Shown piece after piece: positions 1-16,784 of a stretch of 16,784 nucleotides of DNA. Position 1 is the stretch's first letter. The number at the start of each line of letters is the position of its first letter. The notes below the pieces were generated by a model. It did not search any database, was not told where the DNA came from, and was given only the letters and a program-made list of their open reading frames with translations. Made by a program: the position numbers and the translations under genes. Source of the stretch: a virus; the UHGV virus genome UHGV-0338128, one strand, 5' to 3'.

Positions 1-138
1 GGACTGTCAACGATCTACCGCTATCACCCTGTTGGGACTGTCATAACGCAACCTGAAATGTAATTCTTTTTCAAATAATGAAACGCCGCGTGGATGCCAT
101 TTATCGCACAAGATAGAGTGCATTTATCGCGCGGCGCA

Positions 139-528
139 TCAGGTGAGAATGTTGCGATCCAGTGCTTCCGGCACGGCATAGCCGCCGTCTTCATCGGTGC
201 CCACCTGCAATGCCTTGCGCTCCAGATCGCGCAGACCATCTTCACGGCCTTTACGCAGGAAGCCCACAAACGCTTCTTTATGCTCGGTGGCCAGTTTATT
301 TTGCGCACCACCTGCCGGACGTTTCAGCTCAAGCAGCTCTTTTTCAAGATCGCTTTTGAGGTTTTCCAGCTCGCTGAGTTTCCCGTTCAGGGTTTCCACC
401 TGCCCGGCAAGTTTGCCTTTTTCCTGCTCAATCGCATCCACGCGCTTGTCGTTCTTTGCTTTGAAGTCGTCAAACTTCTGCTGCAGCTCCTGCGCGACCT
501 GTTCGACATCTTTAATATCAACCGCCAT
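139..528 (-). pseudogene. HK97-family major capsid protein, N-terminal fragment (delta/scaffold-like coiled coil plus first residues of the mature domain); ORF stops after 129 aa
   Basis: ATG at 528 with AGGAG SD 7 nt upstream; stop of the upstream protease gene lies just before it. The translation is charged and coiled-coil-like (EQ/KL-rich) and ends ...TDEDGGYAVPEALDRNILT, which looks like the start of a mature capsid domain. Full-length HK97-type capsid proteins are about 350-400 aa; here an in-frame TGA occurs at 139-141 and bases 1-138 do not continue the capsid frame. Confidence 0.5.
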
Positions 529-2412: not shown

Positions 2413-2594
2413 TATTTACCTCCGCCGACAGACAGCTGTGTACGATCGAGATATCGCGCCACCAGCCACGACCAGAACAGGCACAGCGCCCCGGCAACAA
2501 CAAAACCCGCCGGGGGATAAATCAGCCAGGCACCATATGCCAGCAAAAGCGCACCCAGCACGCCCACCAGAGGCGCGAGAATCAGCATGATCAT
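2412..2594 (-). CDS. small hydrophobic protein (two predicted transmembrane helices), unknown function
   Basis: 60-aa [52 protein letters not shown]..., with GAGG 6 nt before the ATG. It exactly fills the gap between the terL stop (2606) and the portal start (2412). Confidence 0.5.
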
Positions 2595-2605
2595 AATTAC
2601 CTCAG

Positions 2606-4339
2606 TTAAAGCGAGCGGATCCCGTAGGACTCAATGTGGTCAGACAGCGTGTCTTCTTTCTCGTACAACATGGCTCTGCCAACCGCCATAATCAGCGCAA
2701 CTGCACCATCGATTTTGTTTTCCGCCTGCTCTTTGACGGGTTTCACCACATCATCGTTACCCGGAATGGTTTTGCCGACCACGTTGCCGATACACCAGGT
2801 CATGATGGGATTGCCATCATGATGAAAGCGCCCCGATTCAATTGCCGCTTCCAGCTCTTTCATCGGGTCGGACATGTTGGTGTAGTTCTGAATGATAGTG
2901 ATGGGGTTCAGGTCTTCATCAGCAAGGTCATGTGACAACCCGGTCGCCCCGAAGGGGTCGATGGGTGACTCACTGACCGGGCTGATTTTGTTCGCCGCTT
3001 TGGCCTCCTCGAGGATGTAGCGATAATCCACCTCCGCACCATCGGTAACGGTCAGAACGCCCATTTCCACCCATTTCTGAAAGCGTTCGGCTGTCCGTCG
3101 ATCTTCATTTTTCTCGACGCTGTACACCGTGTCATACGGTACCCAGAAACGCGGGGCCACACTGTAGTAATGCGTTTTACCGTCAATCTCGCGGGTATAA
3201 AGTCGCGCCATGCTGTTCATATCCAGCTTACGCGCCAGGTCAAAGGCCAGAATGCACGGCTGCCCCTCGAACTGCTCAAGGGTCAGTGATTTATCCTCGC
3301 AGCTCTGCCAGCTCACCAGGTTGAAATACGCCGAACGCGCCGACACCCAGATATTGAGGTGTTTTGTTTTAAAGACGTTTGCCAGACGGGCGTTATTTTT
3401 CGCACGCTGCTGCTGACTTAACAAAAATTCGCGATAAACCGACACGCCAATATTTGGATTGGCTTTTTCCAGCACCTGCGGGTCGGTCCAGTCGTCACCT
3501 TCATCAACGGTATAGATGATCCCGAACAGTTCATCGTTAGGCACCGAGCCATTGAGCATCTCGATGACTTCCCGCCGCTTGTCGTAGCACGGCCCCTCAA
3601 TGTTGTACCCGGCGGTGGTGATAGCCCACATCAGTGGCTGACGTCGCGCCCCCATCCCGGTAAGCATCGTGGTGTAAAGCGCATCGGTGGCGTGCTCGTG
3701 ATATTCATCCACCACCGCACAGTGGGGTGATGAACCATCACCGGGGTTACCGATCAGCGGTTCAAACCGCGCGCCATCCTCCGGACGGTTCATGTTTGAG
3801 GCGTTAACCTCAATCCCGAACGCTTCCGTCAGCATGGGTGTGCGTTTACACATCAGTCGAGCCGGGCGAAAGACTTCCCACGCCTGTTTCTCTGTCGTGG
3901 CACCGGAATACACTTCCGCGCCAAACTCGTTATCACAGGCAAAACAATACAGGGCAACACCGGCAGAGATTGCCGATTTGCCGTTCTTACGGGGGATTTC
4001 GGTATACACCTCCCGGAAGCGGCGCAGCCGGGAGCCTTTATTGACCCAGCCAAACGCGCAGCAGATCACAAAGAGCTGCCACGGCTCCAGCGTGATGGGC
4101 ATCCTCTTAAATGCCCACTCACCCTTGGTGTGCGGCAACAGCTGAATAAATTTGGCGGCCCGTTCAGCCAGGTCCTTGTCGAAGCGGTAACGAAACGACT
4201 TACTTTTTTCCGCCATCAGGTCATCAAGATGGCGCTGGCAGGCCTGAATCACAAACTGGCAGGCCACAATCTTTCCGCGCACGACATCCCGGGCATACTG
4301 ATTGGCAGCATTTACGTTGGGGTAAGATTTCCGGCTCAT
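2606..4339 (-). CDS. terminase large subunit
   Basis: 577-aa ORF with an ATPase-like N-terminal region ([14 protein letters not shown]..., Walker-A-like) and nuclease-like C-terminal half. Its ATG overlaps the terS stop in an ATGA junction. Confidence 0.9.
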
Positions 4340-4830
4340 GATTCGATGATTTTCAGAAACGGGTTAGTGGCTTTCTTCTGCCCCGCCAGGCCAATCAGAC
4401 GCTGACGGCTGCTGGGGTCGAGTCCGAGCATTGCCCCCGTGCTGCTCATCTCGGACTCCTGTTCTTTTTTGGCTGTCAGCTCCGGATTTTTGACCCTGCC
4501 GCCCATTGCGCCGGTGATGGTATTGCCCTGTATGGCAATATTTTTCACAGCACGTCGCCAGAACTCATAGGCCACGCACCACCGCTCAAGCACCGCGAGG
4601 TCAGTCACGCACAGCAGGCCCTGACCGCAGAGTTCTTTGGTTGTCAGTTGCCACATGATCGTGGCGAGAGGGAGATCTTCTTCAGCGAACCACTCCGGTG
4701 GCTCAACACCTTTGATGGGCGTAAAAACAGGTTCATCTTTGTTCAGGGCTCGCTTGCCGGGGTTTCCGGCCAGCGCCTTGCGCGCCGTTGGCTTGGGGCG
4801 ACGCCCGGAACGCCCCGCCGTTCCAGCCAT
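4336..4830 (-). CDS. terminase small subunit (P27-like family)
   Basis: N-terminus [28 protein letters not shown] is typical of P27-type small terminases. Start taken at the ATG at 4830 (AGGAG 8 nt upstream); the ORF track start at 4839 is a GTG three codons earlier. Confidence 0.8.
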
Positions 4831-4880
4831 ATGCGGCACTCCTGGTTAAATTTCATTTTTCGCGGGTATAAAAAAACGAT

Positions 4881-4929
4881 GGGGCGGGCAGTCCGGAAGA
4901 CGTCAGGTCACAGGGATTTGACCCGCCCC
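4881..4929. other. candidate cos / terminase recognition region: inverted repeat GGGGCGGG (4881-4888) ... CCCGCCCC (4922-4929)
   Basis: An 8-bp GC-rich inverted repeat with a 33-bp spacer lies in the 116-bp gap between HNH endonuclease and terS. In HK97-like phages the cos site is in this position. Confidence 0.3.
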
Positions 4930-4955
4930 TCCCCTCAGAAAGTTGAGAATTATTA

Positions 4956-5306
4956 TCACTTCAGTCGTTCACGGGCCGTCTTCGCCTTATGACACGGCCA
5001 GCACAGGCTCTGCAGATTGCAGTCTGCATCAGTGCCGCCATGCGCTTTAGGGATGATGTGGTCAACGGTTTTCGCCTCACGCACCACACCGACATGCAGG
5101 CACAACTGACACAGGCCTTTGTCACGCTTCAGCACGCGCGCGCGGATAACATCCCACTTCGAACCGTAGCCGCGCTGGTGACGGGATTGTCCTGGCTTGT
5201 ATTGTTTCCAGCCTTCGCTTTTGTGGCTTTCACAATAGCCTGACGGATCAGTGGTGGTTTGGCGGCAGCCGCGAACGCGGCAGGCTTTTGGGGTTCGTGG
5301 GGGCAT
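4956..5306 (-). CDS. HNH endonuclease (HK97 gp74-like, packaging-associated)
   Basis: 116-aa ORF with Cys pairs (CRVRGC, CESH, CQLC) and the HNH core DHIIPKAHGGTDADCNLQSLCWPCH, located immediately upstream of terS. Confidence 0.85.
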   Translation of the reverse strand: MPPRTPKACRVRGCRQTTTDPSGYCESHKSEGWKQYKPGQSRHQRGYGSKWDVIRARVLKRDKGLCQLCLHVGVVREAKTVDHIIPKAHGGTDADCNLQSLCWPCHKAKTARERLK

Positions 5307-5408
5307 TTAAAGTGGGATCTAACTCTAATAATTTAAAAAATTTAATTGGGTCTTGATATTAATCACATAGACTCAATGCTCTTTAGTTCTTACATAGGTG
5401 GTTGTATT

Positions 5409-5849
5409 ATGAGTATCCCCAGTTTAGATGTTCATAAAGTTGTTAAGTGCGCAGAGCATAAAAAGGCTTTAGATGCAATATCTCTCAAACTTAAGAATAA
5501 CATTATTGACTCAAGCTCTGAATACGATTTTCTTGGCGACACAATAATTTTCAATAAAGATAAAAAAAATAGGTTAACCCTCAAACTTTCAACATATGAA
5601 CTAGAACTTATTTTCAAAGAAACACTGCTAGTCATTGATGAAGCTCCTGTATTGAAGTTTGCTGCCATTGACCCAACCGATGAAAATAACAACGAGCTGA
5701 TTGATTTATTTTTATCCAAAGGTGGATTTATTTATATTAGAGAATACAAATCCGAGCCACATTATGAGTATGGCGACACTTCTCTATTTTTACATATACT
5801 TGACGCTACTCTTAAAGAGCTTAAATCTGCAAACAAAATATCCTATTAA
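5409..5849 (+). CDS. hypothetical protein, AT-rich moron, 146 aa
   Basis: ATG at 5409 with AGGTGG 7 nt upstream; the ORF track extends it to a TTG at 5346. Strongly AT-rich compared with flanking phage genes. Oriented opposite to the late operon. No family recognised. Confidence 0.55.
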   Translation: MSIPSLDVHKVVKCAEHKKALDAISLKLKNNIIDSSSEYDFLGDTIIFNKDKKNRLTLKLSTYELELIFKETLLVIDEAPVLKFAAIDPTDENNNELIDLFLSKGGFIYIREYKSEPHYEYGDTSLFLHILDATLKELKSANKISY

Positions 5850-5955
5850 ATAAATTTTTGCTAACATAGCCCCGCGCCATGACAAGATTTTCTGTTCTAG
5901 ATGCAAGGGCTATGTGTGAATATCTATAAACAAAAAACCCATCCGGTGATTTTTG

Positions 5956-6180
5956 TCATTTTTTAGCCATCTCAATTGCGGCATCAAAAAGTCGTTCAAG
6001 AATAAAATCAGGGTACTGTAATTTTTCTTGCTCGATATGAAGCTCATAAATTTTCCCTTCCCACTCCCATTTAAAATTAAATCCAGAAGCAGAAGGTGCG
6101 AAATGTGTTTTAGCTTTAGGGTTAGCGTAACCAGCAACAGTCAACACATCAAACTTAAAATCTTGAGGTTTAATACGCAT
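5956..6180 (-). CDS. hypothetical small protein, AT-rich moron, about 74 aa
   Basis: Start taken at the ATG at 6180 (MRIKPQDFKF...) with AAGGA upstream; the ORF track starts at 6207 (MMNLAKDMIM...). Convergent with the 146-aa gene. No family recognised. Confidence 0.5.
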   Translation of the reverse strand: MRIKPQDFKFDVLTVAGYANPKAKTHFAPSASGFNFKWEWEGKIYELHIEQEKLQYPDFILERLFDAAIEMAKK

Positions 6181-6212
6181 AATCATATCCTTTGCCAAGT
6201 TCATCATTATTC

Positions 6213-6247
6213 TTCGCGATTATAAAACAATGAATAAAATCATTAAA
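6213..6247 (-). promoter_or_regulatory. candidate sigma70 promoter for the 74-aa moron gene (-10 TATAAT, -35 TTTAAT, 17-bp spacer)
   Basis: On the minus strand a perfect TATAAT (plus 6219-6224) lies 17 bp after TTTAAT (plus 6242-6247), about 35 nt upstream of the ATG at 6180. Confidence 0.3.
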
Positions 6248-6277
6248 GCATAGACGTTAAATATCCTCAAAATGTGA

Positions 6278-6715
6278 TTAGTTGGGACATTGCGTCCTGA
6301 TATACTCCTGCAAGTAATTGACCTGTGAGGTTATCTTGTCGATTCCACTTCGGAGACGGTAATAATGGAGTTCAGCATCTGCTGTAAGTCTAGGGCTTTC
6401 TCCATCGCCCATGCCGCTGGCTCCGGTCGTTGACTTTGTACAGGTGGCGGCGACTTGCAGGCGCTTATGCCCAGCAGAAACATCAGCACGAAGACTTTCG
6501 ATAGTCGCATTAGCATCAGCAAGCTCCTTTGTATATCTGGCATCGAGTTCAGCTACATTACGTTGACGCTTCTGCATATCAGCGATGATGGATGTGGCTT
6601 TATCGCGCTGTACTTTGTAGACGATGGCGTCATCACGGTAATTATCAACAGCCCATGACAAGCAGACGATGATGCAGATAACCAGAGCGGATATAATCAC
6701 CGTTACTCTGCTCAT
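6278..6715 (-). CDS. Rz: i-spanin Rz
   Basis: N-terminus [23 protein letters not shown] (signal-anchor) followed by coiled coil; closely resembles lambda Rz as I recall it. Start overlaps the endolysin stop. Confidence 0.9.
6331..6516 (-). CDS. Rz1: o-spanin Rz1 (lipoprotein embedded in Rz in a different frame)
   Basis: Embedded ORF with lipobox LLGISAC followed by a proline-rich segment ([13 protein letters not shown]). Start taken at the ATG at 6516 (AAGGAG 8 nt upstream); the ORF track extends to 6543. Confidence 0.75.
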
Positions 6716-7188
6716 ACCTGAATCTCTTTGACCGTTCCGCCGGCTTCTTTGAATTTTGCAATCAGGCTGTCAGCCTTATGCTCAAACTGACCATAACCAG
6801 CTCCCGGCAGTGAAGCCCAGATATTGCTGCAACGGTCGATAGCCTGACGAATATCACCGCGATCAATCATCGGTAAAGCACCACGCTCTTTAATCTGCTG
6901 CAGTGCAACAGCATCCTGGCTTTTTGGAGAGAAGTCTTTCAGTCCAAGCTGTTTACGGTATGCATCCCACCAGCGGGAAAGAAGCTGGTAGCGCCCGGCA
7001 GCCGTTGATTTGAGTTTTGGGTTTAGCGTGACAAGTCTGCGAGGGTGATCGGAGTAATCAGTGAATATTTCTCCGCCCACAATGACGTCATAACCATGAT
7101 TACGTGTCGGTTGTAGCCCATTATCCGTTCCTTCTGACCAGGCCACCATATCGAGGAAAGCTTTACGCTGAGGATTAAGATTTTGCAT
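6712..7188 (-). CDS. R: endolysin, lambda R-type lytic transglycosylase
   Basis: 158 aa; [24 protein letters not shown]...[86 protein letters not shown] is near-identical to lambda R as I recall it. Confidence 0.95.
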
Positions 7189-7579
7189 TTTTCACCCCTG
7201 TCAGTCGTTCCCAGAAGTACGTCAGTGCAACCGAACCCATCGCACCACTAATCCCCGCAGTTGCGAGAATCATGTAAATACTGAATCCACTTTCGATACT
7301 GATTAGGCCACCAATAACACCGGTGAATCCTGATACAACTATCTGAGCGAGGGCATTTATCCAGCTCCACGTTGCTTTACTCTGCTTCACATCAATCAGG
7401 TAACGGACAAGCCCCCCCCAACCTGCGATGATCAGCAAAACAAGCCAGAACGCTCCGGCAAGATTCTCTTTTTCGTGCATATGAATAGCCGCAGTTTCGC
7501 CTCCGACAGAAAATCGGAGCGTGAAATGATATGTTGATTTATTATTAATTCGAAAATTACATTCTAATTCATCAGGCAT
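7175..7579 (-). CDS. holin (three predicted TM segments; not lambda S or phage 21 S type)
   Basis: Three hydrophobic segments (GAFWLVLLIIAGWGGLV, WINALAQIVVSGFTGVIGGLI, FSIYMILATAGISGAMGSVAL) directly upstream of and overlapping the endolysin gene. Start uncertain: ATG at 7579 has no SD; an in-frame ATG at 7480 (MHEKEN...) gives about 101 aa. Confidence 0.7.
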   Translation of the reverse strand: MPDELECNFRINNKSTYHFTLRFSVGGETAAIHMHEKENLAGAFWLVLLIIAGWGGLVRYLIDVKQSKATWSWINALAQIVVSGFTGVIGGLISIESGFSIYMILATAGISGAMGSVALTYFWERLTGVKNAKS

Positions 7580-7597
7580 TGATGATTTTATAATAAT

Positions 7598-7620
7598 AAA
7601 GGCCGTTCGTTACGGCCTTT
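7598..7620 (-). terminator. intrinsic terminator-like hairpin after the acidic moron gene
   Basis: GGCCGT (7601-7606) / ACGGCC (7612-7617) stem with a 5-nt loop, flanked by A/T runs on both sides; read on the minus strand it is followed by UUUAUUAUUAU. Confidence 0.45.
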
Positions 7621-7631
7621 ATTATTGATAT

Positions 7632-7967
7632 TTATTTTACATCCCAAGGTAGTTCCTCAAGAGAGAAGACTAATTCATTATCAATAATTTCGTATTCTGC
7701 ATAACCTTCAACCTCTCCTGAGAAGTTATTGTCAACGCATCCTTCATAATAGCTATATGGTGCTATAAAGTGAAACCCATATTCATCTATCTCTGTGATT
7801 TCAAAATTGTAGTAATCGTAAGAATATCGAATATCATCATCAGAAATAGAACTAAGTACATAGTTATTAAATTTATCGGAATGCTTAACGATAAGTTCTG
7901 ACAACGCGTCAAGATTCTCTGGAGAGATATTTCCTAACGGTAATCTGTACTCAACGGCATTAATCAT
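7632..7967 (-). CDS. hypothetical highly acidic protein (111 aa), late-operon moron
   Basis: ATG at 7967 with strong AAAGGAGG SD. By my hand count about 24 Asp/Glu against about 5 Lys/Arg, and rich in Tyr/Phe. AT-rich. Bracketed by two terminator-like hairpins, downstream of Q and upstream of holin. Confidence 0.6.
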   Translation of the reverse strand: MINAVEYRLPLGNISPENLDALSELIVKHSDKFNNYVLSSISDDDIRYSYDYYNFEITEIDEYGFHFIAPYSYYEGCVDNNFSGEVEGYAEYEIIDNELVFSLEELPWDVK

Positions 7968-8019
7968 ACAACCTCCTTTTTAACTGATATGAGGTTATAT
8001 AATGTGTTTCAGTACAAGT

Positions 8020-8045
8020 AAATAAAAACCCGCTCAACAGCGGGT
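8020..8045 (-). terminator. candidate tR' intrinsic terminator
   Basis: On the minus strand: ACCCGCU-GUUG-AGCGGGU hairpin (plus 8028-8045) followed by UUUUUAUUU, about 110 nt downstream of the Q stop. Confidence 0.6.
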
Positions 8046-8086
8046 TCGTGAAAATTATCAACGGCAGACATACAAAGCCCATCGTT

Positions 8087-8121
8087 GAGAAAATCTTATC
8101 CATATTTTTTGAAAAATGCAA
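8087..8121 (-). promoter_or_regulatory. candidate late promoter PR' (-35 TTGCAT, -10 TAAGAT, 17-bp spacer) with presumed Q-utilisation region
   Basis: On the minus strand TTGCAT (plus 8116-8121) and TAAGAT (plus 8093-8098) lie between the Q stop (8153) and the tR'-like terminator. Position fits lambdoid PR'. Not experimentally verifiable from sequence. Confidence 0.35.
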
Positions 8122-8152
8122 GCTTCATGTCACTATCTTCGGCGAAAATCAC

Positions 8153-8905
8153 TTATCTCGTCACCTTTCTCAATTGTGTTTCAGCATATGCTTCTTCCTG
8201 CCAGCACTTTGTTACTAGTTTATCAATTACGTCTGCATATCCTTTGTACCACTGATAATCAGTCAGGTCTGGAACCAGCTTCTGGACATGACGTCGTGCC
8301 AGTGTAGTCGGTAAACGGCTAAACCGGTTTCCATTGCAACGCCCACAAGTCTTATAAACAGGCGTGCCATGAAGCCGGGTTCTTTTTTCATCCAGGACAA
8401 TACCTTTACCCTTACACCCTCTGCACGCCGTGCTGACTTCTCCCTTGCCATGACAATGCTGACACAGTTCCTTCACCCACTCTTCTTTGATAACGGATTC
8501 CCCGCTTCTGGAATGTTTCACCACTTCGCGCAATACATTATGAAATCCAGTACCAGTACAATGCTCACAGCGAGCCTTACTTGCCGCAGACCTGGAATAA
8601 TCAGCAAAGGCAAAATTCACAAGGTAAGGGATGATCTGTAACCGGGTTTCTTCACTCAATTTGTTCAATGTCGGGTTATCCAGTGCCATCGCGTAATTGA
8701 GCAGGCCTTCAATCGCAAACTGAGGATCCTGAACACCAACTTTTGCCAAGAATAAGGCAAACCCAAGCGGTGCTTTCGACTGCACCATCCCCTGCGCAGC
8801 CATTACATCCGTAATTGTTAAACCACCCGAGCCTGTCGCCGATGCGTCATCGCTCAATTTTGGAGATTTTGGGGAGTAATATTTCGGTAAGGCTTCAAGG
8901 TTCAT
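8153..8905 (-). CDS. Q: late-gene antiterminator Q (cysteine-rich, zinc-finger type)
   Basis: Start at the ATG at 8905 (MNLEALPKYY...) with GGAGAA upstream; the ORF track extends 14 codons further. Contains CEHCTGTG, CQHCHGKG, CRGCKGKG and CGRCNGN motifs. Sits immediately upstream of the candidate PR'/tR' and lysis genes; I recall similar Q proteins in Stx-type lambdoid phages. Confidence 0.8.
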   Translation of the reverse strand: MNLEALPKYYSPKSPKLSDDASATGSGGLTITDVMAAQGMVQSKAPLGFALFLAKVGVQDPQFAIEGLLNYAMALDNPTLNKLSEETRLQIIPYLVNFAFADYSRSAASKARCEHCTGTGFHNVLREVVKHSRSGESVIKEEWVKELCQHCHGKGEVSTACRGCKGKGIVLDEKRTRLHGTPVYKTCGRCNGNRFSRLPTTLARRHVQKLVPDLTDYQWYKGYADVIDKLVTKCWQEEAYAETQLRKVTR

Positions 8906-8918
8906 GCTCGTTCTCCAC

Positions 8919-9914
8919 TTACACCAGTACGCCAATTGCCAGCGCACGATCGATAAAACGAAATATCAGCTCCAGCTGGGAGCCATACATCTCTTCAAAT
9001 GCCACGGTATCCGCATGCAGCTCGTCGTGATGCTTTCTGCACAAAGGCAACACAAAAAGGTCATGCGCTTTTGTACCCATTCCACCCTGTCCGTGGCCTA
9101 TCAGGTGGTGGGGATCATCAGCGGGCTTTCCACAACATGCACACGACTGTGTCTTAACCCAGCGCGTGTACTTTTCATTAACCCAGCGGCGACATTTTGG
9201 GCGTAACATAAAAGACTCCGGCGACTCCGGATCCACTTTCAGCGCCAGCACCTTTTTCGCTTTATCCTGGATGATGCTGGTGGCAGGAACCGAAGGAACA
9301 AGGTCACTTTCCCGGGTGACAGACGGCACAACAGGCTTTGGTAATCTCAGTGCCTTACGGGCTGCACTTTCCGGTAAGGCATCCGCCAGGTCATTACGAA
9401 TCAGCCACCAGCACAGTTCCGGCATTGTCACAACGTGACTGTCATCAAAACCGAGATCCCGACGCACAACAGACAACACCCAGCGGGCACAGTTATCCGT
9501 TGCCATTGATTCCAGCCGTTCCGTGAACTGATCGCGCAGCTGGTTATCGCAGTGCCAGCACAGACGGATTGCGCCCGGCGCGTGTCGCATTGTGGTCATG
9601 TTCTCGCTGTGCCAGTCGGAATGAGGCCACTGGCAGCCTTTTTCACGAAGTAACCAGCTTTCAAGACATTCCACGCCACCAGCACGACGGATCACTGCCT
9701 CATTGCGGAACACGGCCCGAACAGCAGGATCATCCGCCAGCGGTTGTGATGCCGCGGGAACGGCACCACTGGCGAAAGATGAATAACGTTCCGGCTCAGG
9801 CTCCAGCAGTACACGCCCCTGCATAAACAGGGGCATCAGTTCTGAACCTGGTCTGAACAATACGATCCCCATACGCGGGGCTATTTCAGGGGTCAGTAGT
9901 GCTCTCACGGTCAC
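8919..9914 (-). CDS. DUF968-like phage protein (YdfU-like) with C-terminal HNH/zinc-binding-like motif
   Basis: 331-aa ORF; C-terminal CACCGKPADDPHHLIGHGQGG...CRKHHDELH motif. Position just upstream of Q matches ydfU-quuQ in the E. coli Qin prophage as I recall it. Start codon at 9914 is GTG; the first in-frame ATG is at 9872. Confidence 0.6.
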   Translation of the reverse strand: MTVRALLTPEIAPRMGIVLFRPGSELMPLFMQGRVLLEPEPERYSSFASGAVPAASQPLADDPAVRAVFRNEAVIRRAGGVECLESWLLREKGCQWPHSDWHSENMTTMRHAPGAIRLCWHCDNQLRDQFTERLESMATDNCARWVLSVVRRDLGFDDSHVVTMPELCWWLIRNDLADALPESAARKALRLPKPVVPSVTRESDLVPSVPATSIIQDKAKKVLALKVDPESPESFMLRPKCRRWVNEKYTRWVKTQSCACCGKPADDPHHLIGHGQGGMGTKAHDLFVLPLCRKHHDELHADTVAFEEMYGSQLELIFRFIDRALAIGVLV

Positions 9915-9915
9915 C

Positions 9916-10725
9916 TCAATGAACGGTATCGAGCAACTTTAACAGCTCAGGGAATCGGGATTCGAAGAAATGCGGCTGCGTCTCGCGCGGATTTGCGGGA
10001 CTGATGATGTTCTTGCCGAACATGCAACCTTTCGCTGTCAGCGACCAGAATTTTTTGATGTTGTTAATCGTGGTACGGCTGTATCGTTCACGTTGTTCAA
10101 CGATCCCCAGCTTCGCCATCTGGTGATATGCCTGATTAGCTGTCAGGCGGATACCATACTGCTTCAGCAGTGCACTCAGTGACAGCGTGGGGCGGCTTGA
10201 GCCATCAGGCGCGTCAGCAGGAGCATCAATGGCATAGCGCGGTGCCAGATTCGGTAAGCCAACAGCCTCCTGGAGTTTCTGACAGGCACCAAGCACTGAA
10301 GAGTTAGACAGGTTTAATTCCCGGCGCATAAAGTCCAGCAGAATCACACCAGCCTGCATCTTGTCAGCAGCCTGTCCGGATAATTTTTCCGGTGCGCTGG
10401 TTACCATGTCGAAAGTACGGATCACCTTCAGATGGAATGACGGGCTGATCCACATTGCATAGGCATACACCAGTTCTTTGCAGACATACGTCCCCTGGTT
10501 ATTTCCGCCATTAATGACGCTAACTGGTTGATTTTGTTCCAGAGGCGGAATTCCACCCTCGGTGAAAAGTTGTTCAATCAATTCACAGGTTTGCTTATTG
10601 GAGAGCCAGTATTTCGGGCGGTTTTTTTGTTCTCCCCCGGCTGCCCTGTGCAGATCGTTCAGGCTGTAACGCCCATAAGCATCACGACGAACTTCAATAC
10701 CATCAATGACCATCAGATTATTCAT
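9916..10725 (-). CDS. KilA-N domain protein
   Basis: N-terminus MNNLMVIDGIEVRRDAYGRYSLNDLHRAAGGEQKNRPKYWLSNKQTCELIEQ matches the KilA-N DNA-binding domain pattern. GGAGA SD upstream of the ATG at 10725. Confidence 0.7.
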   Translation of the reverse strand: MNNLMVIDGIEVRRDAYGRYSLNDLHRAAGGEQKNRPKYWLSNKQTCELIEQLFTEGGIPPLEQNQPVSVINGGNNQGTYVCKELVYAYAMWISPSFHLKVIRTFDMVTSAPEKLSGQAADKMQAGVILLDFMRRELNLSNSSVLGACQKLQEAVGLPNLAPRYAIDAPADAPDGSSRPTLSLSALLKQYGIRLTANQAYHQMAKLGIVEQRERYSRTTINNIKKFWSLTAKGCMFGKNIISPANPRETQPHFFESRFPELLKLLDTVH

Positions 10726-10744
10726 ACTTCGTTTCTCCTCTTAA

Positions 10745-11134
10745 TCAGGCGGCTGCACCCGCCGTTTTCTCGTACTTACTGATAGTGATCTCGACCTTCC
10801 CTTCCGGGATAACCGGTCCCCACTCCACCAGCATTCTTTTCACCTGGCTGTCGTCTTCCCACACACCTGCGTGGGTCAGGGCGTCAAACAGCGCCTTGTT
10901 ATAGTTATCCAGATCGCGGATCCTGTTATCCGGAGGAAACAACACGATCTCCACTGAAGCAGGTGCCGACGTTGGTTTCGGCAGACGACGTAACTGCTCA
11001 ACTATTGCTGCGCACGCCGCGCTCTGGAATTTTCGCCCCGCCGCGCTTATCAGGCTCTTACCTGCAAACGCCCCTTTGTTAGGGTGTCGCCAGTAAGTGT
11101 TCACGCTGGGCGGGAAAGGCAGGATAAGCTTCAT
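10745..11134 (-). CDS. rusA: RusA-family Holliday junction resolvase
   Basis: LPFPPSVNTYWRH... and IRDLDNYNKALFDALTHAGVWEDDSQV align with E. coli RusA (LPWPPSNNRYYRH..., [27 protein letters not shown]) as I recall it. ATGA overlap with the upstream gene. Confidence 0.85.
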   Translation of the reverse strand: MKLILPFPPSVNTYWRHPNKGAFAGKSLISAAGRKFQSAACAAIVEQLRRLPKPTSAPASVEIVLFPPDNRIRDLDNYNKALFDALTHAGVWEDDSQVKRMLVEWGPVIPEGKVEITISKYEKTAGAAA

Positions 11135-11457
11135 ACTTTCAGGCCCCTCTCATGTAACCAGTGAGTTGCACGCAGCCTGGCGTTTTCCTCACCGGCAAGC
11201 AGTGCGCGGATAATCCCGGCTGCCTCGCTGTCGTCGTCCTTCACTGTGGTATGAAGCGTGATACCCCGGGCCACGCCACGCTTTATCGTGATGACGCCTT
11301 TTTTCTCCATTGCGCGAAGATGCTCCACCGCTGCATTCACCGAACGGTATCCCAGCATGGCTGCCACCTCCTGATTGGTTGGCGGGAAACCACGTTCTTT
11401 CTGATAAGAAATCAGCATATCCAGCACCTGCTGCTGGCATTGAGTTAACGTCGTCAT
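11131..11457 (-). CDS. LexA N-terminal DNA-binding-domain homolog lacking the S24 peptidase domain (108 aa)
   Basis: From the ATG at 11457: MTTLTQCQQQVLDMLISYQKERGFPPTNQEVAAMLGYRSVNAAVEHLRAMEKKGVITIKRGVARGITL aligns without gaps to E. coli LexA residues 1-69 as I recall them ([68 protein letters not shown]). Only about 39 further residues follow and no Ser/Lys peptidase domain. Start overlaps the upstream stop (TAATG); the ORF track start at 11490 is a GTG. Confidence 0.7.
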   Translation of the reverse strand: MTTLTQCQQQVLDMLISYQKERGFPPTNQEVAAMLGYRSVNAAVEHLRAMEKKGVITIKRGVARGITLHTTVKDDDSEAAGIIRALLAGEENARLRATHWLHERGLKV

Positions 11458-11945
11458 TAACCCCCCACGTAATTCCCTGACAGATACCACTCATCACCCG
11501 ATACAGCGCGCTTGCTGCTTTTCCGTAAACACTGCTCACGACGCGCCAGAAAATTGTTTCGTTCTGGCTGGGAGTGGCTTTCACGGAATGCCGCCATCCA
11601 CACCGTTGCAGCACGACGGTATAAGCCCCTGGACTCTAGTTCTTCAGCCTGGCGGGTCAGGCACAAAATCACACGGGGATCGTTAGTGCCGACATAGAAA
11701 TTGCGCACAGGTCTGGTTTCACGAACTGGTTGTGGTTCCGGCTCCTGTGCTCTCTCAGTCAGGCGCGGGAAATGTCTGCGTGTATCCCCTTCACAACGGT
11801 GAGCCACACGCCCACTCTGACGTAACTTGCTTGCTGACTGCAGAACGCGCTGCCGTGAGTAACCAGCAAAAGCATCCGCAATGTCTCCGGAAGTACACCC
11901 CGGATGGGCTTCAATGAATTTCTGAACTTCATTCAAAAGACTCAT
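11457..11945 (-). CDS. putative PerC/Pch-like transcriptional regulator (162 aa)
   Basis: C-terminal LESRGLYRRAATVWMAAFRESHSQPERNNFLARREQCL resembles the GLWRRAA..W core I recall for PerC-family proteins. The N-terminal 60 aa looks like a winged-helix. Family assignment is from memory and tentative. Confidence 0.45.
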   Translation of the reverse strand: MSLLNEVQKFIEAHPGCTSGDIADAFAGYSRQRVLQSASKLRQSGRVAHRCEGDTRRHFPRLTERAQEPEPQPVRETRPVRNFYVGTNDPRVILCLTRQAEELESRGLYRRAATVWMAAFRESHSQPERNNFLARREQCLRKSSKRAVSGDEWYLSGNYVGG

Positions 11946-11947
11946 GA

Positions 11948-12754
11948 TTACCCCCTGAATCCTGCCGGGATCTGGCTGTAGTCCACGTTGTCGTAACTGG
12001 CTTTGAAGTACGGGTCCTCGCGTCTGGCTGCAGATACCGCAGGAACTTCCCAGGATTCTTCGAAATGACGATCCGGACCAAAGAACGTGACAGCCTGTTT
12101 CACAAATTGTGTGCCGCTGTTACCCATCGCAGATACCCAGCCCGCGTAGCGTTTCACACCTTCCAGCATGGTTTCGGGTTTTACCCCCTCATTCAAACGG
12201 GCTTTCCAGGCTTTGAAGGCTGCAGATTTTGAATTGCCACCAGCACGTTTGGGATATGCCAGCCATGCCTGCTCAAACTCCGGAGAGTATTCCGGTCGGT
12301 TTGAACGAACTCGCACAGACTCATCAGCAGATGCACCAACAGCTATTGGTTCATTGACTGGTTCAAAAGAGTGACTGGTTCTGGGTGAATCTCCTGCACT
12401 ACCCCCTGGTGCAACTCCTGCACTACCTGGTGAATTTGCTGCACCAGATAGTGAATTATTTGCACTACCCCCTAGTGAATCTCCTGCACCATCAAGATGA
12501 AGGAGATAGATATTACTTGAGTTACCTTTTTCACCTTTCCGGGTGACTTTTTTTACCAGCCCGGAATCACAAAGGGCCGCAATATGATTCATCACAGAAC
12601 GTTTGCTAATCTCGCACTGGTCAGCAATATGCTGGTAGCTGGGCCAGCACTCACCCTGATCGCTGGCATTATCAGCCAGCTTGATCAGAACCAGTTTTCG
12701 CAATGGATTACCCACTCGAATTTTCATCGCTTTAACCATCAGCTCCATACTCAT
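11948..12754 (-). CDS. replication initiator (lambda O-like replisome organiser, N-terminal HTH)
   Basis: Start at the ATG at 12754, overlapping the upstream stop (ATGA). N-terminal ...LRKLVLIKLADNASDQGECWPSYQHIADQCEISKRSVMNHIAALCDSGLV is typical of phage replication-initiator HTH domains. A Gly/Ser/Ala-rich linker is encoded by a direct-repeat array, then a C-terminal domain follows. The ORF track extends to 12793. Confidence 0.75.
   Translation of the reverse strand: MSMELMVKAMKIRVGNPLRKLVLIKLADNASDQGECWPSYQHIADQCEISKRSVMNHIAALCDSGLVKKVTRKGEKGNSSNIYLLHLDGAGDSLGGSANNSLSGAANSPGSAGVAPGGSAGDSPRTSHSFEPVNEPIAVGASADESVRVRSNRPEYSPEFEQAWLAYPKRAGGNSKSAAFKAWKARLNEGVKPETMLEGVKRYAGWVSAMGNSGTQFVKQAVTFFGPDRHFEESWEVPAVSAARREDPYFKASYDNVDYSQIPAGFRG
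12385..12493. repeat. iteron-like direct repeats (five units of about 21-24 bp, GTGAATCTCCTGCACTACCCCCT-like) inside the replication gene: candidate ori
   Basis: Units begin near 12385, 12409, 12430, 12451 and 12475; each contains a GTG(A/C)A...TGCAC partial dyad. They map to the interdomain linker of the initiator, as lambda ori iterons do within O, and are flanked by a moderately AT-rich stretch (12494-12530). Confidence 0.55.
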
Positions 12755-12975
12755 GCTGCACCTCCGAGATGCTTCATGTTTTTTCCGGAGCAAAAGGCTA
12801 TAAGCGGCATACTGACGCGGTAATTACGGCCCAGCGGTTCACAAACCACCTTCTGACATTCACGGTCAACCAGGCTAACACGTAGAACATGCCCTGCAGG
12901 CGTGGTGTACCACTGACCCGGACGAGGACAACGGAAAGTCTGATTGGTAAAACGTTTGAAAATATTCCGGATCAT
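12751..12975 (-). CDS. hypothetical small protein (74 aa)
   Basis: ATGA overlaps at both ends (with the Rha stop and the replication-gene start) imply translational coupling within the early operon. Several Cys/His (RCPRPG...RECQKVVCEP). No family recognised. Confidence 0.5.
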   Translation of the reverse strand: MIRNIFKRFTNQTFRCPRPGQWYTTPAGHVLRVSLVDRECQKVVCEPLGRNYRVSMPLIAFCSGKNMKHLGGAA

Positions 12976-14123
12976 TTGCGCCCCCTTACCTCTGAAGGGT
13001 TCAGCGACAAATTTATGAGGCAGGCCAGCGCCGAAGCATCATTAATATAATCATATAAGCTAACAGCCAGCGGAGATTCGGCTTTTGCCAACATAGGATA
13101 AAGCTGCTGCAGCCAGACCTGATGAATTGATGAAATGTAGGAACAGAGAACGCTGGCGTTATGTGCAACGTCGCTCGGTACAGCGGGCTTTGAAAGCTGT
13201 TTCTCCATCTGGTTAAAGGCATTGATATATGCCTCTTTGAACTGGGCAGCACGTTTACCCGTGAAACCCATAGCAAGAAACGCAAAACCGTCGCGTGTGA
13301 TTTGGTAGCAATGAAGTTTGCGACCTGTGCAATCAGTGTAATCACTCACCGAAAAATTGCGGGCAGTGAATGATGCTGAGCATTCAAGCGTGCGGATCTT
13401 TTTCAGTACATCGTCATGACGTTTGGAGAAGAAGTTGGCAACAGCCAGGGATGAAGTAACAACCTGACCATCAACGATGGCAATTTCAGGTTGAGTGAGG
13501 GTTGGGATCGTAGCCATGATGGCAGCCTCTTTGGTGATTTTTAATAACTCACCACCAAGGCTTTCCACGACCTTATTGGTGGTGAGACGTACAGGGGTGG
13601 AAATACCGGTCACCAAAGAACCCGGCCCAACCGAAGTTGGCCCTGCACGCCCCACCATAATTTGGGCGTAATGCTGCTCATGACACAAAAAAACCGCAAG
13701 AGCGCGGTTGTGCGCTTTGGTGAATTCCGGGTTTCCACGCCCGGCCCCCGTTTTATAAGGTGCCTGAACAGTGTAACGTCCCGGAATGGCAGAATCAATG
13801 TGTTGGTGGTCCGTCACACTCAACAAAATCACGCCTGAATTTCCACAAAGGACTAAAGCACTCATGCGGGTAGTCTTTGCGAAGATAGATAACGCGCTGT
13901 GTTTCTGGTTCCCAACGAATAACATGAACATAAAGCCCTCTTCCGTCACGAAACCAGCGGTTAAGTTCCTGCACAACTCGCCCCCCACAGTCAGGTAAAG
14001 TTCTCTGTGGTTACTTACAGCCTGGTGATTTGGTAATCTGCATTCATGCCGTAACAACAGGTGTTCAGAGACGCTGACCACCAGCTGTTGCGACAAACGG
14101 TTATTTGCCGTTAAACTGTTCAT
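12972..14123 (-). CDS. Rha-family phage regulatory protein with about 200-aa N-terminal extension of unknown function
   Basis: C-terminal 181 aa (from MATIPTLTQPEIAIVDGQVVTSSLAVANFFSKRHDDVLKKIRTL...ITRDGFAFLAMGFTGKRAAQFKEAYINAFNQME) match the Rha domain pattern. The frame is open for 202 further codons upstream to an ATG at 14123 that overlaps the CII-like stop (ATGA) and has GGAGA upstream. An internal ATG at 13517 with AAAGAGG SD sits exactly at the Rha domain start. Confidence 0.65.
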   Translation of the reverse strand: MNSLTANNRLSQQLVVSVSEHLLLRHECRLPNHQAVSNHRELYLTVGGELCRNLTAGFVTEEGFMFMLFVGNQKHSALSIFAKTTRMSALVLCGNSGVILLSVTDHQHIDSAIPGRYTVQAPYKTGAGRGNPEFTKAHNRALAVFLCHEQHYAQIMVGRAGPTSVGPGSLVTGISTPVRLTTNKVVESLGGELLKITKEAAIMATIPTLTQPEIAIVDGQVVTSSLAVANFFSKRHDDVLKKIRTLECSASFTARNFSVSDYTDCTGRKLHCYQITRDGFAFLAMGFTGKRAAQFKEAYINAFNQMEKQLSKPAVPSDVAHNASVLCSYISSIHQVWLQQLYPMLAKAESPLAVSLYDYINDASALACLINLSLNPSEVRGRK

Positions 14124-14671
14124 GCGTTAGTTTCTCCACAGACACAAAACGCCACGACGCCCGGAGCTGCACACTCGCGGGCGTCACTCTTTTCTGGAGC
14201 GCAGAAAATTTTGTAGACCAGTGCCGCATGCTCCTGGAGCTTCGAAATCGACAGATACAACTCATCATTAATTGCTGTCTGCTCGTGTGGCTCCACTACC
14301 CCATCTTCGATTGCCGAACGAATCTGCTTTGAGTAACTCCCGATTTGTTCGATGACTTCCAGCAGGCGCTGGTTTATATCGGCGTTCTCTACTTCCTCAA
14401 TTTCAGGAAGCGATACAAACACCCCACCAGCAGACTGTGCGACAGCATCCGCAATGTAGTGAGTGCCAGCAGCGCGCTGTAAAATCATTGCCCATCCCAG
14501 CGGGAAAATCTGATCGCCATCTGCACGAAGGCGGTTGAATAAAGCGTTCTCTGTTACATCCAGCCACTCAGCAGCTTCAGCGTAACCCCCCGGCAACGCC
14601 GCGATAGTTTTTCTGACAGCTTTCACGTACCACTCAGGCTGTTTTTCCACTTTCCAGTGATGCTTACCCAC
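14120..14671 (-). CDS. putative CII-type early regulatory protein (phage 186 CII / CP76-like), 183 aa
   Basis: Occupies the cII position directly after cro. GTG start at 14671 with AGGAG 7 nt upstream. The central segment (ALFNRLRADGDQIFPLGWAMILQRAAGTHYIADAVAQ) loosely resembles phage 186 CII as I recall it. Tentative. Confidence 0.4.
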   Translation of the reverse strand: MGKHHWKVEKQPEWYVKAVRKTIAALPGGYAEAAEWLDVTENALFNRLRADGDQIFPLGWAMILQRAAGTHYIADAVAQSAGGVFVSLPEIEEVENADINQRLLEVIEQIGSYSKQIRSAIEDGVVEPHEQTAINDELYLSISKLQEHAALVYKIFCAPEKSDARECAAPGVVAFCVCGETNA

Positions 14672-15021: not shown

Positions 15022-15714
15022 ATGAACATAGGAAATCGAGTCAGACAACTTCGCCAAGCGAAGAACATGAAAATCGCCGATCTCGCTGAAGCAATAGGAG
15101 TGGATGCGGCAAATATCTCGCGCCTGGAAACAGGTAAGCAGAAACAATTCACTGAACAAGCCCTGAGTAATATTGCCAGGAGCTTAGGTGTTGATATTGC
15201 TGATCTCTTTACCTCAGACTTCAAAAGTAATACTGTATGTAAAAACAGTATTAGTGAGGATGTTGCGCAGGTGAAGGATGTATTCCGTATTGAAATGCTG
15301 GATATCAGTGCCAGTGCGGGAAATGGCCTTATCCAGGGCGGTGATGTCATTGATGTGATTCATGCCATTGAATACAGAACTGATAATGCTGTATCGATGT
15401 TTGGCGGACGGCCAGCAAATCACATTAAAGTAATCAACGTTCGTGGGGACAGTATGTGTCCAACCATTGAGCCAGGAGATCTCATCTTCGTTGATGTCAG
15501 TATCAATCAGTTTGATGGAGATGGTATCTATGTATTTGGTTTTGATGATAAAATTTATGTCAAACGACTGCAAATGATACCTGACAAACTACTGGTGATT
15601 TCTGATAACCAGATTTACCGTGAATGGGGAATTACCAGCGAAAATGAACACCGGTTTATGGTCTTTGGAAAGGTCTTAATCAGCCAGTCACAAACCCTTA
15701 AGCGACACAATTAA
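15022..15714 (+). CDS. cI: CI-like prophage repressor (N-terminal XRE HTH, C-terminal S24 LexA-like autopeptidase)
   Basis: HTH (MKIADLAEAIGVDAANISRLETGKQ), an Ala-Gly candidate cleavage site (SASAGNG), and a peptidase signature (VRGDSMCPTIEPGDLIFVD ... VKRL). Confidence 0.9.
   Translation: MNIGNRVRQLRQAKNMKIADLAEAIGVDAANISRLETGKQKQFTEQALSNIARSLGVDIADLFTSDFKSNTVCKNSISEDVAQVKDVFRIEMLDISASAGNGLIQGGDVIDVIHAIEYRTDNAVSMFGGRPANHIKVINVRGDSMCPTIEPGDLIFVDVSINQFDGDGIYVFGFDDKIYVKRLQMIPDKLLVISDNQIYREWGITSENEHRFMVFGKVLISQSQTLKRHN
15231..15250. promoter_or_regulatory. near-consensus LexA (SOS) box TACTGTATGTAAAAACAGTA inside the cI coding sequence
   Basis: Perfect TACTG-N10-CAGTA with an AT-rich spacer; falls in the linker between the HTH and peptidase domains of the CI-like protein (codons for SNTVCKNSI). 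Confidence 0.45.
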
Positions 15715-16436: not shown

Positions 16437-16784
16437 ATGGCTAGCGAACGCAGTACTAATGTGCAGGCATTTATCGGGGAGCTGGACGGCGGCGTATTTG
16501 AAACCAAAATCGGCGCAGTTCTCAGTGAAGTCGCTTCAGGTGTGATGAACACGAAAACCAAAGGTAAGGTCTCACTCAACCTGGAAATCGAACCATTTGA
16601 TGAGAACCGTGTGAAAATCAAACACAAACTCTCATATGTTCGCCCGACTAACCGCGGGAAAATTTCCGAAGAAGACACCACCGAAACGCCGATGTATGTC
16701 AATCGCGGTGGTCGCCTGACTATTCTGCAGGAAGACCAGGGACAATTACTGACTCTTGCCGGTGAACCTGACGGAAAACTCCGC
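16437..16784 (+). CDS. hypothetical early-left protein, 5' part only (runs off the window end)
   Basis: ATG at 16437 with GAGGAG SD 7 nt upstream; open for 116 codons to the window edge (MASERSTNVQAFIGELDGGVFETKIGAVLSEVASGVMNTKTKGKVSLNLEIEPFDENRVK...). Not in the ORF track because no stop is reached. No family recognised. Confidence 0.55.
   Translation, partial: MASERSTNVQAFIGELDGGVFETKIGAVLSEVASGVMNTKTKGKVSLNLEIEPFDENRVKIKHKLSYVRPTNRGKISEEDTTETPMYVNRGGRLTILQEDQGQLLTLAGEPDGKLR

Follow-up and report, generated by a model that had tools for sequence, protein, structure and literature searches.

The window, a 16,784-nt stretch of prophage DNA, carries a dense array of Chi sites, nearly all of which point one way. 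Chi is the signal at which the host nuclease RecBCD stops destroying DNA and turns to recombination. An exact search of both strands found 10 copies of the Chi octamer, GCTGGTGG, nine of them minus-strand and one plus-strand. The pattern is real, and it was apparently selected. We consider it likely that Chi sites built up on the top strand (3′ end at the right cos end) of an SfV-type phage with neither a Rec module nor a RecBCD inhibitor, and that these sites are used by host RecBCD. The pattern matches a class that is already known (Bobay et al., 2013, PMC3784561; Zheng et al., 2025, PMC12315714), and the principle is not new beyond these two studies.

The prophage segment and its cos site

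Judged by its gene order, the window is a segment of an E. coli-type lambdoid prophage of the SfV/mEp460/CPS-53 group, spanning packaging, lysis, late-regulation, nin and replication-immunity genes. The order was read from open reading frames and Pfam matches in the window and from annotated relatives at 95–98% identity. The elements of the lambdoid plan that were found are cos/terminase, head, lysis, Q, the nin region, an O-like replication gene, cro/cI and a leftward early operon. The SfV genome-end junction (GACGTCT/TCCGGAC) maps to window position 4898/4897, and the right arm of the phage map runs from cos (~4898) toward higher window coordinates. Iteron-like direct repeats in the O-like gene are the probable origin of replication, by analogy with lambda, whose ori lies inside gene O. 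The right edge of the window falls within yfdP.

This copy has a truncated capsid gene and no tail genes. Because of the truncation it appears defective, and it is probably non-viable as a phage. An invertase/capsid junction (a 49-base stretch) is present in the element. The minus strand is G-rich throughout the window. Three low-GC open reading frames (5346–5849, 5956–6207 and 7632–7967) gave no Pfam or PADLOC match; the only PHROG match among them was that of 7632–7967, to a family without known function.

Number and position of the Chi sites

The coordinates of the Chi sites and of the landmarks around them are given in Table 1. All nine minus-strand sites are coding and lie on the sense strand of minus-strand genes, and all three reading frames are used, which bears out the co-orientation of Chi with the genes proposed in an earlier, sequence-only reading. 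That reading had given four sites on the minus strand and one on the plus strand. The strand bias stands; the list was incomplete, the exact search having added the five minus-strand sites at 2103, 2459, 6967, 10825 and 12237. One of its positions, 9405, was exact, 9677 was off by 1, and 14068 and 14434 were each off by 10. The plus-strand site that it placed at 9283 is real, 9283 being its end coordinate. The extent that it gave, 9405–14441, was too narrow, and the sites run from 2103 to 14431. An incomplete manual count had been foreseen as a possible flaw; the count erred low, and the reading is not refuted by it.

Table 1. Chi sites and landmarks of the window (active orientation unless noted).
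Feature	Coordinates	Strand	Context
Chi	2103–2110	-	Portal gene, frame xxG-CTG-GTG-G (E-L-V-V); left arm of phage map; kept in relatives L001, L002, L007, L008
Chi	2459–2466	-	ymfR-like small gene (W-L-V-A); kept in L001, L002, L007, L008
cos region	4839–4956	-	Between HNH endonuclease gene and P27-family small terminase gene
Chi	6967–6974	-	Endolysin gene (R-W-W)
Chi, sole opposite-orientation (inactive) copy	9276–9283	+	Antisense in DUF968/HNH gene; kept in 6/6 relatives
Chi	9405–9412	-	DUF968/HNH gene (C-W-W); kept in 6/6 relatives
Chi	9676–9683	-	DUF968/HNH gene (A-G-G); kept in 6/6 relatives
Chi	10825–10832	-	RusA Holliday-junction resolvase gene (M-L-V-E); kept in 6/6 relatives
Chi	12237–12244	-	O-like replication initiator gene (A-G-G); ~150 bp from iterons
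Iteron-like direct repeats (GTGAATCTCCTGCACTACC..., 21–24 nt spacing)	12385–12489		Inside O-like gene
Chi	14078–14085	-	Rha/Ash-family regulator gene (Q-L-V-V); in E. coli relatives covering the position (L001, SfV, mEp460), missing from Salmonella relatives
Chi	14424–14431	-	YmfL / CII(CP76)-like gene (A-G-G); varies between relatives
yfdP start	16437–16784	+	Opens leftward early operon; coordinates mapped from L001 33000–33362

Polarity relative to cos and Chi in relatives

The nine minus-strand sites are oriented for recognition by RecBCD coming in at the right cos end. Seven of them are in the right arm, five of these between the iterons and cos, and the one nearest to the right cos end, at 6967, is 2069 bp in. 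Relatives have 16–19 active and 1–5 inactive sites, and Chi is the rank-1 top-strand octamer in SfV (17), mEp460 (16), the L001 prophage (17) and S.Typ Adana (17). In SfV, 13 of the 17 top-strand sites fall within 10 kb of the right end and there are hardly any in the tail genes, a contrast taken from relatives, the window having no tail genes. On the SfV bottom strand the first Chi from the left end is at 27.5 kb.

Two Salmonella relatives (83–88% identity) have active and inactive sites in ratios of 17:3 and 19:1. They keep 6/9 and 6/8 of the window sites, compared with 34% and 50% of all octamers (P = 0.045 and 0.15), modestly above background. The inactive site at 9276 is kept just as well, which means that part of this conservation comes from protein constraint; site-by-site conservation was rejected as a test of selection, being marginal and confounded in this way. 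The sequences of the Salmonella relatives suggest turnover of individual sites with maintenance of their number.

Chi frequency relative to composition and to the host

Chi is over-represented relative to the composition of the window in dinucleotide, Markov and codon-shuffle models; the last are taken up with the alternatives below. Dinucleotide shuffles gave 0.67 +/- 0.78 sites with a maximum of 3, and 0/200 reached 10. Markov models of orders 2–5 predict 0.9–2.8 minus-strand sites and the order-6 model 5.8, compared with 9 observed; the order-6 expectation is already this high because the overlapping heptamers are themselves enriched. CCACCAGC is the top-ranked octamer by frequency on the plus strand of the window, and any octamer at all reached at least 9 copies in only 3/300 order-3 Markov simulations. 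The above-random count claimed by the sequence-only reading is thus borne out, with an excess larger than it had supposed.

The density of Chi is 0.60 per kb in the window and 0.53 in the L001 prophage, with a higher value, 0.79, for the right arm, compared with 0.17 in the host flanks of L001 (98.7 kb of E. coli chromosome) and published values of 0.2–0.22 per kb for E. coli (PMC3784561, PMC12315714). The Poisson probability of the window density at the host rate is ~0.001–0.004. A density matching that of the host would have spoken against the earlier reading; the value found is ~3 times the host background and leaves it unrefuted.

Two other motifs were considered. The KOPS motif GGGNAGGG occurs 2 times in the window vs. 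1.6 expected, so that no general host-polarity signal was seen. GCGGGAAA is found 7:0 on the plus strand vs. 0.8 expected, with two copies within oppositely oriented genes. It was set aside as chance or shared ancestry, because ~3% of Markov simulations yield a runner-up with 7 copies and only 0–1 copies occur in the Salmonella relatives.

Recombination genes

No member of the Gam, Abc2, RecT, Erf, Rad52 or exonuclease families was found among the open reading frames of the window or in the early-left operon of L001. The canonical position of a Rec module is beyond the right edge of the window, and its absence from this prophage is probable, judged by relatives. Those with the same flank (L001, SfV, mEp460 and Stx2a-WGPS2) have a yfdP/yfdQ/yfdR layout, in which yfdQ (DUF2303) and yfdR (5′-deoxynucleotidase) follow yfdP where lambda has gam-bet-exo, and this region gave no Rec or Gam family match in any of the four. 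An “exonuclease” is annotated near xis in mEp460 and a “3′-5′ exoribonuclease” in 118970_sal3. Such phages may have an unrecognised recombination or anti-RecBCD function. According to Zheng et al. (2025, PMC12315714), the yfdP/Q/R cluster also occurs outside the Rec-less phages and is missing from some of them.

Comparison with known systems

Lambdoid phages without Rec genes over-represent Chi between ori and cos, up to ~3 times the level of the E. coli core genome, both in prophages and in sequenced phages (PMC3784561). The element shares with these Rec-minus, inhibitor-minus phages of Escherichia and Salmonella the over-representation of Chi and its concentration from the replication genes to terminase/cos. 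Their median observed/expected ratio is 3.1 under a trinucleotide model (PMC3784561); with the same model order the active-strand ratio of the window is 9.6 (9 observed/0.94 expected), which is above the published median because the window samples a Chi-rich part of the genome.

A class with no Rec module and high Chi, with sites in active orientation and clustered at the right end, has been described together with the yfdP/Q/R cluster (PMC12315714). The element resembles its LLS-type members in lambdoid layout, in orientation relative to the terminase end and in having at least 8 active and at most 6 inactive sites; the window alone has 9 and 1. Chi is the top octamer in phage MD8 of that study (PMC12315714), as it is in the window. 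The element differs from LLS in its virion module, which is of the SfV type (HK97-like head, HNH and P27-family small terminase) rather than mEp213-like. Its relatives have a Mu-like contractile tail, and this copy is truncated.

In the classical work on lambda red gam chi+ (Kobayashi et al., 1982, and others, as cited in PMC12315714), a top-strand Chi that RecBCD reaches after entry at the right cos end stimulates recombination by RecA and RecBCD, and a phage without Red and Gam can grow again. That phage is a laboratory mutant with one Chi, whereas many sites are the natural state of the element. According to the citations in PMC12315714 and PMC3784561, phage P1 and its relatives are Chi-rich and need host RecA and RecBCD. 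The element and P1 would share the use of Chi and RecBCD by a recombinase-less phage to make linear DNA replicable or packageable through recombination; P1 is unrelated, does not integrate and circularises via terminal redundancy, not cos ends. The E. coli chromosome and the element have the octamer and the enzyme in common, and the sites of the L001 prophage point like the local host Chi; the element is about three times denser and its sites are arranged around phage landmarks. Chromosomal Chi occurs about once per 4.6 kb in E. coli, mostly on the leading strand.

Proposed function of the Chi array and alternative explanations

In the mechanism that we propose, terminase would cut cos and remain at the left end, so that the right end is free; a free end would also be offered by a rolling-circle tail. 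Host RecBCD would load there and proceed leftward, passing the lysis, Q, nin and replication genes and meeting a correctly oriented Chi within about 1–2 kb and many more after it. Degradation would then cease and RecA would be loaded onto the 3′ strand, so that the phage DNA is spared and recombines into the concatemers needed for cos packaging. The phage RusA resolvase may aid the resolution of junctions. That RecBCD would enter at the right end and benefit growth is taken from the literature: RecBCD-enhanced growth is reported for LLS and three other isolates only (PMC12315714), and no experiments on SfV-type phages were found in the cited literature. A role of Chi in RecBCD processing, suggested by the earlier reading, is the published view of lambdoid phages of this type (PMC3784561; PMC12315714).

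It is very improbable that the sites are a by-product of coding, that is, of GCTGGTGG arising from favoured E. coli codons in genes on one strand with no selection for Chi. Chi can indeed be composed from favoured codons (CTG-GTG, GCT-GGT-GG, TGG-TGG), and the minus strand is G-rich. Shuffles of synonymous codons that preserve the proteins and the codon usage of each gene predict a sense-to-antisense ratio of ~7:1, from which the observed 9:1 does not differ, all nine minus-strand sites being sense and coding. The same shuffles gave only 2.0–2.8 sense sites, with a maximum of 8, and 0/3000 reached 9; 9 of the 15 peptide contexts able to spell Chi do so, across three frames. Coding thus explains the strand bias in the window and does not explain the density, for which this explanation is already largely refuted. 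Lambda, with similar codon usage and gene polarity, has no Chi, and in published analyses Chi peaks where G+C is lowest (PMC12315714). The orientation is not a coding artefact either, because in relatives the five distinct sites that fall in leftward-transcribed genes all lie on the top strand, antisense yet in active orientation (5:0; P ~2e-5 under the coding expectation). Density and these antisense sites are the informative signals.

It is somewhat less improbable, though still unlikely, that a resident prophage gained leading-strand Chi for normal repair of host double-strand breaks across the element, a benefit raised as possible by Bobay et al. (PMC3784561). The Chi strand of the L001 prophage is the local leading strand, and in its flanks the GC skew is negative and 11 of the 17 sites share that strand. 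The density, highest in the right arm, is nevertheless ~3 times that of flanking host DNA, and the same pattern is seen in the SfV and mEp460 records, which are described as complete genomes and start at the terminase genes. Chi clusters by phage landmarks (ori and cos) and is sparse in tail genes. Rec-plus, Gam-plus prophages in the same chromosomes avoid Chi (PMC3784561). A role in protection alone is possible but has a rather low probability among the explanations considered for the array. Chi shields linear DNA from RecBCD, protection and anti-restriction are among the benefits listed by Bobay et al. (PMC3784561), and with many sites close together escape from degradation would be near-certain. 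On this account Chi would mainly halt RecBCD degradation, including that after restriction, and would not promote recombination into concatemers. It might also limit the acquisition of CRISPR spacers, to which Chi has a possible link. The sites are one-directional, and the SfV left end has no correct Chi for 27 kb; because they cover the right end alone, entry at a packaging or rolling-circle end is favoured over defence of injected DNA at its two ends or of breaks made at random by restriction. In the work of Zheng et al. no phage was inhibited by RecBCD and the growth of LLS was enhanced by it; LLS also does well in recD mutants, which are deficient in nuclease and proficient in recombination (PMC12315714).

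While use of the array by host RecBCD during phage growth is the favoured reading for the ancestral phage, in this copy the sites are probably its legacy, now plain chromosomal Chi sites without a phage-level function, the capsid gene being truncated and the tail genes absent. We think it quite unlikely that the apparently defective copy retains them for a non-phage role, or that yfdP/yfdQ(DUF2303)/yfdR is an unrecognised partner of a Chi-dependent lifestyle. A retained array could be a RecBCD “stop and recombine” island shielding downstream host DNA, or the remnant could serve as a preferred RecA/RecBCD donor to superinfecting Chi-dependent relatives.

Implications

On the favoured reading, the window is a textbook-quality case of a phage exploiting, rather than blocking, a host repair enzyme, in which Chi outranks all other octamers and overrides codon and strand preferences. 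In annotation, an array of this kind, dense and one-way, can serve as a marker in lambdoid prophages, predicting the polarity of packaging and a lack of Red/Gam-type genes. Such an array likewise marks the nin and lysis region as a hotspot of recombination, a point that bears on the mosaicism of Stx-converting and serotype-converting phages with the shared module. More than 5000 E. coli genomes carry the module.

Chi sites in the window

An exact search of both strands of the 16,784-base window found 10 GCTGGTGG octamers, the Chi sequence that turns host RecBCD from DNA degradation to recombination: nine on the minus strand and one on the plus strand. All nine minus-strand sites fall within genes and on their sense strand, which bears out the co-orientation with genes claimed in the sequence-only reading. 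The strand bias described there is real and was under-counted. Five of the 10 sites had been listed (one exact, one displaced by 1 base, two displaced by 10, and one placed at its end coordinate), and the other five were missed. The span was given as 9405–14441, but the feature covers most of the window.

Dinucleotide-preserving shuffles (n = 200) gave 0.67 Chi sites, with a maximum of 3, and Markov models (orders 2–5) predicted 0.9–2.8 copies of the minus-strand form. The excess over random expectation, also noted earlier, holds. When all octamers were ranked by frequency, CCACCAGC came first on the plus strand, and nine copies of any octamer were reached in just 3 of 300 order-3 Markov simulations.

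Coordinates of features in the window
Feature	Position	Strand	Remarks
Chi, active orientation (n = 9)	starts 2103, 2459, 6967, 9405, 9676, 10825, 12237, 14078, 14424	minus	exact search
Chi, inactive orientation (n = 1)	9276–9283	plus	antisense in DUF968/HNH gene; exact search
GCGGGAAA	6973, 11110, 11382, 11765, 14500, 15316, 16654	plus	octamer count
Pin/Hin-type DNA invertase gene, 3′ end	1–63	plus	
Prophage-terminus sequence	64–141		78 bp
Fusion to capsid gene	~139–142		at codon ~129
HK97-type major capsid gene remnant	139–528	minus	~129 codons vs. ~400 in relatives
cos	4898/4897		
Low-GC island	5310–6290		~37–40% G+C
167-aa ORF	5346–5849	opposite strand	low-GC island
83-aa ORF	5956–6207		low-GC island
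Low-GC island	7580–8050		~37–40% G+C
111-aa ORF	7632–7967		low-GC island; PHROG phrog_13663, unknown function
Missing methyltransferase gene	11454–11457		LexA-like and yfdN genes abut
Iteron-like direct repeats (GTGAATCTCCTGCACTACC...)	12385–12489		inside O-like replication gene
cI-like repressor gene	15022–15714	plus	
yfdP start	from ~16437	plus	

Gene map and relatives

The window is 84–98% identical to lambdoid phages and prophages of E. coli, Shigella and Salmonella, including vB_EcoM-689R6, SfV, mEp460, several Stx2 phages and Salmonella phage 118970_sal3, and parts of it are present in 5157 of 5426 complete E. coli genomes. Gene order was taken from the annotation of close relatives and from Pfam and PHROG scans of the window ORFs. 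From high to low coordinates the minus strand carries cro-like, YmfL / CII(CP76)-like, Rha/Ash regulator and O-like initiator (HTH_36 / DnaD_N) genes, followed by YfdN/PerC, LexA-like, RusA, KilA-N, DUF968/HNH and Q, then a low-GC ORF, holin, endolysin, Rz/Rz1, two unknown ORFs and an HNH endonuclease. Beyond cos, which is placed by the collinear genome-end junction of SfV, come a P27-family small terminase, the large terminase, YmfR, portal, an HK97-type prohead protease and the major capsid gene up to codon 129. The origin is probably at the iteron-like repeats, ~150 bp from the active Chi at 12237.

On the top strand of the phage map, which is the window minus strand, Chi outnumbers its bottom-strand form 17:5 in SfV, 16:4 in mEp460, 17:3 in the L001 prophage (the closest intact relative), 17:3 in Salmonella phage S.Typ Adana and 19:1 in a 40.5-kb stretch of 118970_sal3; in lambda the count is 0:0. 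Chi is by a wide margin the commonest top-strand octamer in the four that were ranked, SfV, mEp460, L001 and S.Typ Adana, and most of the runner-up octamers overlap it. In SfV, the final 10 kb at the right end contains 13 of the 17 top-strand sites and the structural genes contain three; the first Chi that RecBCD moving rightward from the left end could use is at 27.5 kb.

Almost every E. coli relative that spans a window site shares it; two relatives differ at 14424. Of the covered sites, 6 of 9 are kept in one Salmonella phage and 6 of 8 in the other, compared with 34% and 50% for octamers in general. The excess is only marginal (P = 0.045 and 0.15), and these phages have many additional Chi elsewhere. 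Such comparisons suggest that Chi number is maintained while individual sites turn over. The inactive Chi is conserved in all six relatives examined, Salmonella phages included, so that conservation of Chi in the DUF968/HNH gene may partly reflect plain protein constraint.

The lysis cassette at 22238–23711 of L001 is of another kind, with a GH19 endolysin and two holins; it holds six co-oriented Chi within 1.5 kb, ~1.5–3 kb from cos, whereas the lambda-R-type cassette of the window has one. Chi may have accumulated independently in different lysis modules.

Recombination genes and a proposed role for RecBCD

Neither the window ORFs nor the early-left proteins of L001 matched the Gam, Abc2, Red-beta/RecT, Erf, Rad52 or exonuclease families. 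The L001 proteins are yfdP, YfdQ/DUF2303, a YfdR-like 5′-deoxynucleotidase, two DUF551 proteins, one unknown and an integrase, and the yfdP/Q/R arrangement is identical in SfV, mEp460 and a Stx2a phage that shares the module at 96% identity. Because the window ends inside yfdP, we infer from these relatives that its own prophage would lack a Rec module.

Chi-rich lambdoid phages of this Rec-less type have already been described. Chi is over-represented between the replication genes and terminase in lambdoids without recombinases, but is avoided where recombinases occur together with Gam or Abc2 (Bobay et al., 2013; PMC3784561). Growth of the Rec-less phage LLS is enhanced by RecBCD; of its 23 Chi, 20 have the active orientation and cluster at the right end, and 62 further Rec-less lambdoids have at least eight active Chi (Zheng et al., 2025; PMC12315714). 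The yfdR/yfdQ/yfdP cluster was noted in that group (Zheng et al., 2025).

The anatomy of the window fits the published model, and the earlier suggestion that the array may modulate RecBCD processing is sound. In lambda, cleavage of cos by terminase leaves the right end free (Kobayashi et al., 1982, as cited in Zheng et al., 2025). If RecBCD likewise loads at the right cos end when SfV-type phages package their DNA, and then moves leftward, it would meet each top-strand Chi from the recognised side, since the 3′ end of that strand is at this end. The first active Chi in the window is 2.07 kb from it and six more lie within 9.5 kb. At Chi, RecBCD would cease degradation and load RecA; phage DNA would be protected and recombination would yield the concatemers required for packaging, with a presumed benefit to growth. 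A role in protection only is not separable from one in recombination by sequence data, but one-sided Chi coverage and the normal growth of LLS in recD mutants (Zheng et al., 2025) favor recombination.

Coding constraint and chromosome polarity

Codon choice could in principle place Chi on the sense strand. The nine co-oriented sites use all three frames, spelling Ala-Gly-Gly (three), x-Trp-Trp (two) and Leu-Val (four). Synonymous-codon shuffles (3000 runs), with each protein and the codon usage of each gene held constant, gave 2.8 sense Chi within genes (2.0 with codons pooled) and 0.38 antisense. As the observed 9:1 does not differ from the coding-expected ~7:1, coding explains the direction of the bias. 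It does not explain the number: nine sense sites were reached in none of the 3000 runs, and 9 of the 15 peptide contexts in the window able to spell Chi by synonymous choice do so. Leftward-transcribed genes of the relatives, where coding bias predicts bottom-strand Chi, served as a control. All five distinct Chi there (in orf29-like, dinI, exonuclease, DUF2303 and exoribonuclease genes) are top-strand and antisense, with none sense (P ~2e-5 under the coding expectation), indicating that polarity is set by the genome and not by its genes. A pure coding artefact is thus excluded for both density and orientation.

Nor does the array reflect host background, a match with which had been named as grounds for dismissing it. 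The window has 0.60 Chi per kb, against 0.17 per kb for the E. coli chromosome on the flanks of L001 (17 sites in 98.7 kb), a value consistent with published ones of 0.2 per kb (Bobay et al., 2013) and 1008 sites per 4.6 Mb (Zheng et al., 2025). At host density at least 10 Chi would be found with Poisson P = 0.0008–0.004. The whole L001 prophage has 0.53 per kb. The strand that carries its Chi array is locally the G-rich one and also bears most Chi of the flanks, so in this one relative, where the proposed comparison with replication direction was run, the array is also co-oriented with replication. Adaptation to chromosome polarity is compatible with that orientation, but does not explain why Chi is three times as dense as in the host, or why the sites cluster by phage landmarks. 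Against it also stand the same pattern in SfV and mEp460, whose records are described as complete and start at the terminase genes, and the avoidance of Chi by Gam-encoding prophages (Bobay et al., 2013).

State of the prophage copy and other features

The 78 bp next to the invertase gene match the terminal bases of a contractile-tail prophage adjoining host yehR in E. coli 510016, here joined to the major capsid gene. The rest of that gene and the head-completion and tail genes, ~14 kb in intact L001, are missing. The copy is probably defective or rearranged, and the Chi array is therefore best explained by descent from an ancestor that was functional.

The low-GC islands on either side of the lysis cassette have no counterpart in the closest relatives. 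Pfam and PADLOC gave no match for their three ORFs, and PHROG matched the 111-aa ORF only; the islands appear to be moron-like cargo.

The second commonest octamer in the window, GCGGGAAA, is distributed 7:0 in favor of the plus strand (expected 0.8), and two copies fall within the cI-like and yfdP genes, both oppositely oriented. It was rejected as a meaningful signal, since ~3% of simulations gave a runner-up count of seven and its copy number in the Salmonella relatives is 0–1; the excess is probably due to chance or shared ancestry.

Between the LexA-like gene and yfdN, L001, SfV, mEp460 and Stx2a-WGPS2 carry a phage N6-adenine (Dam-type) methyltransferase gene that is cleanly missing from the window; in the relatives it contains one Chi in each orientation.
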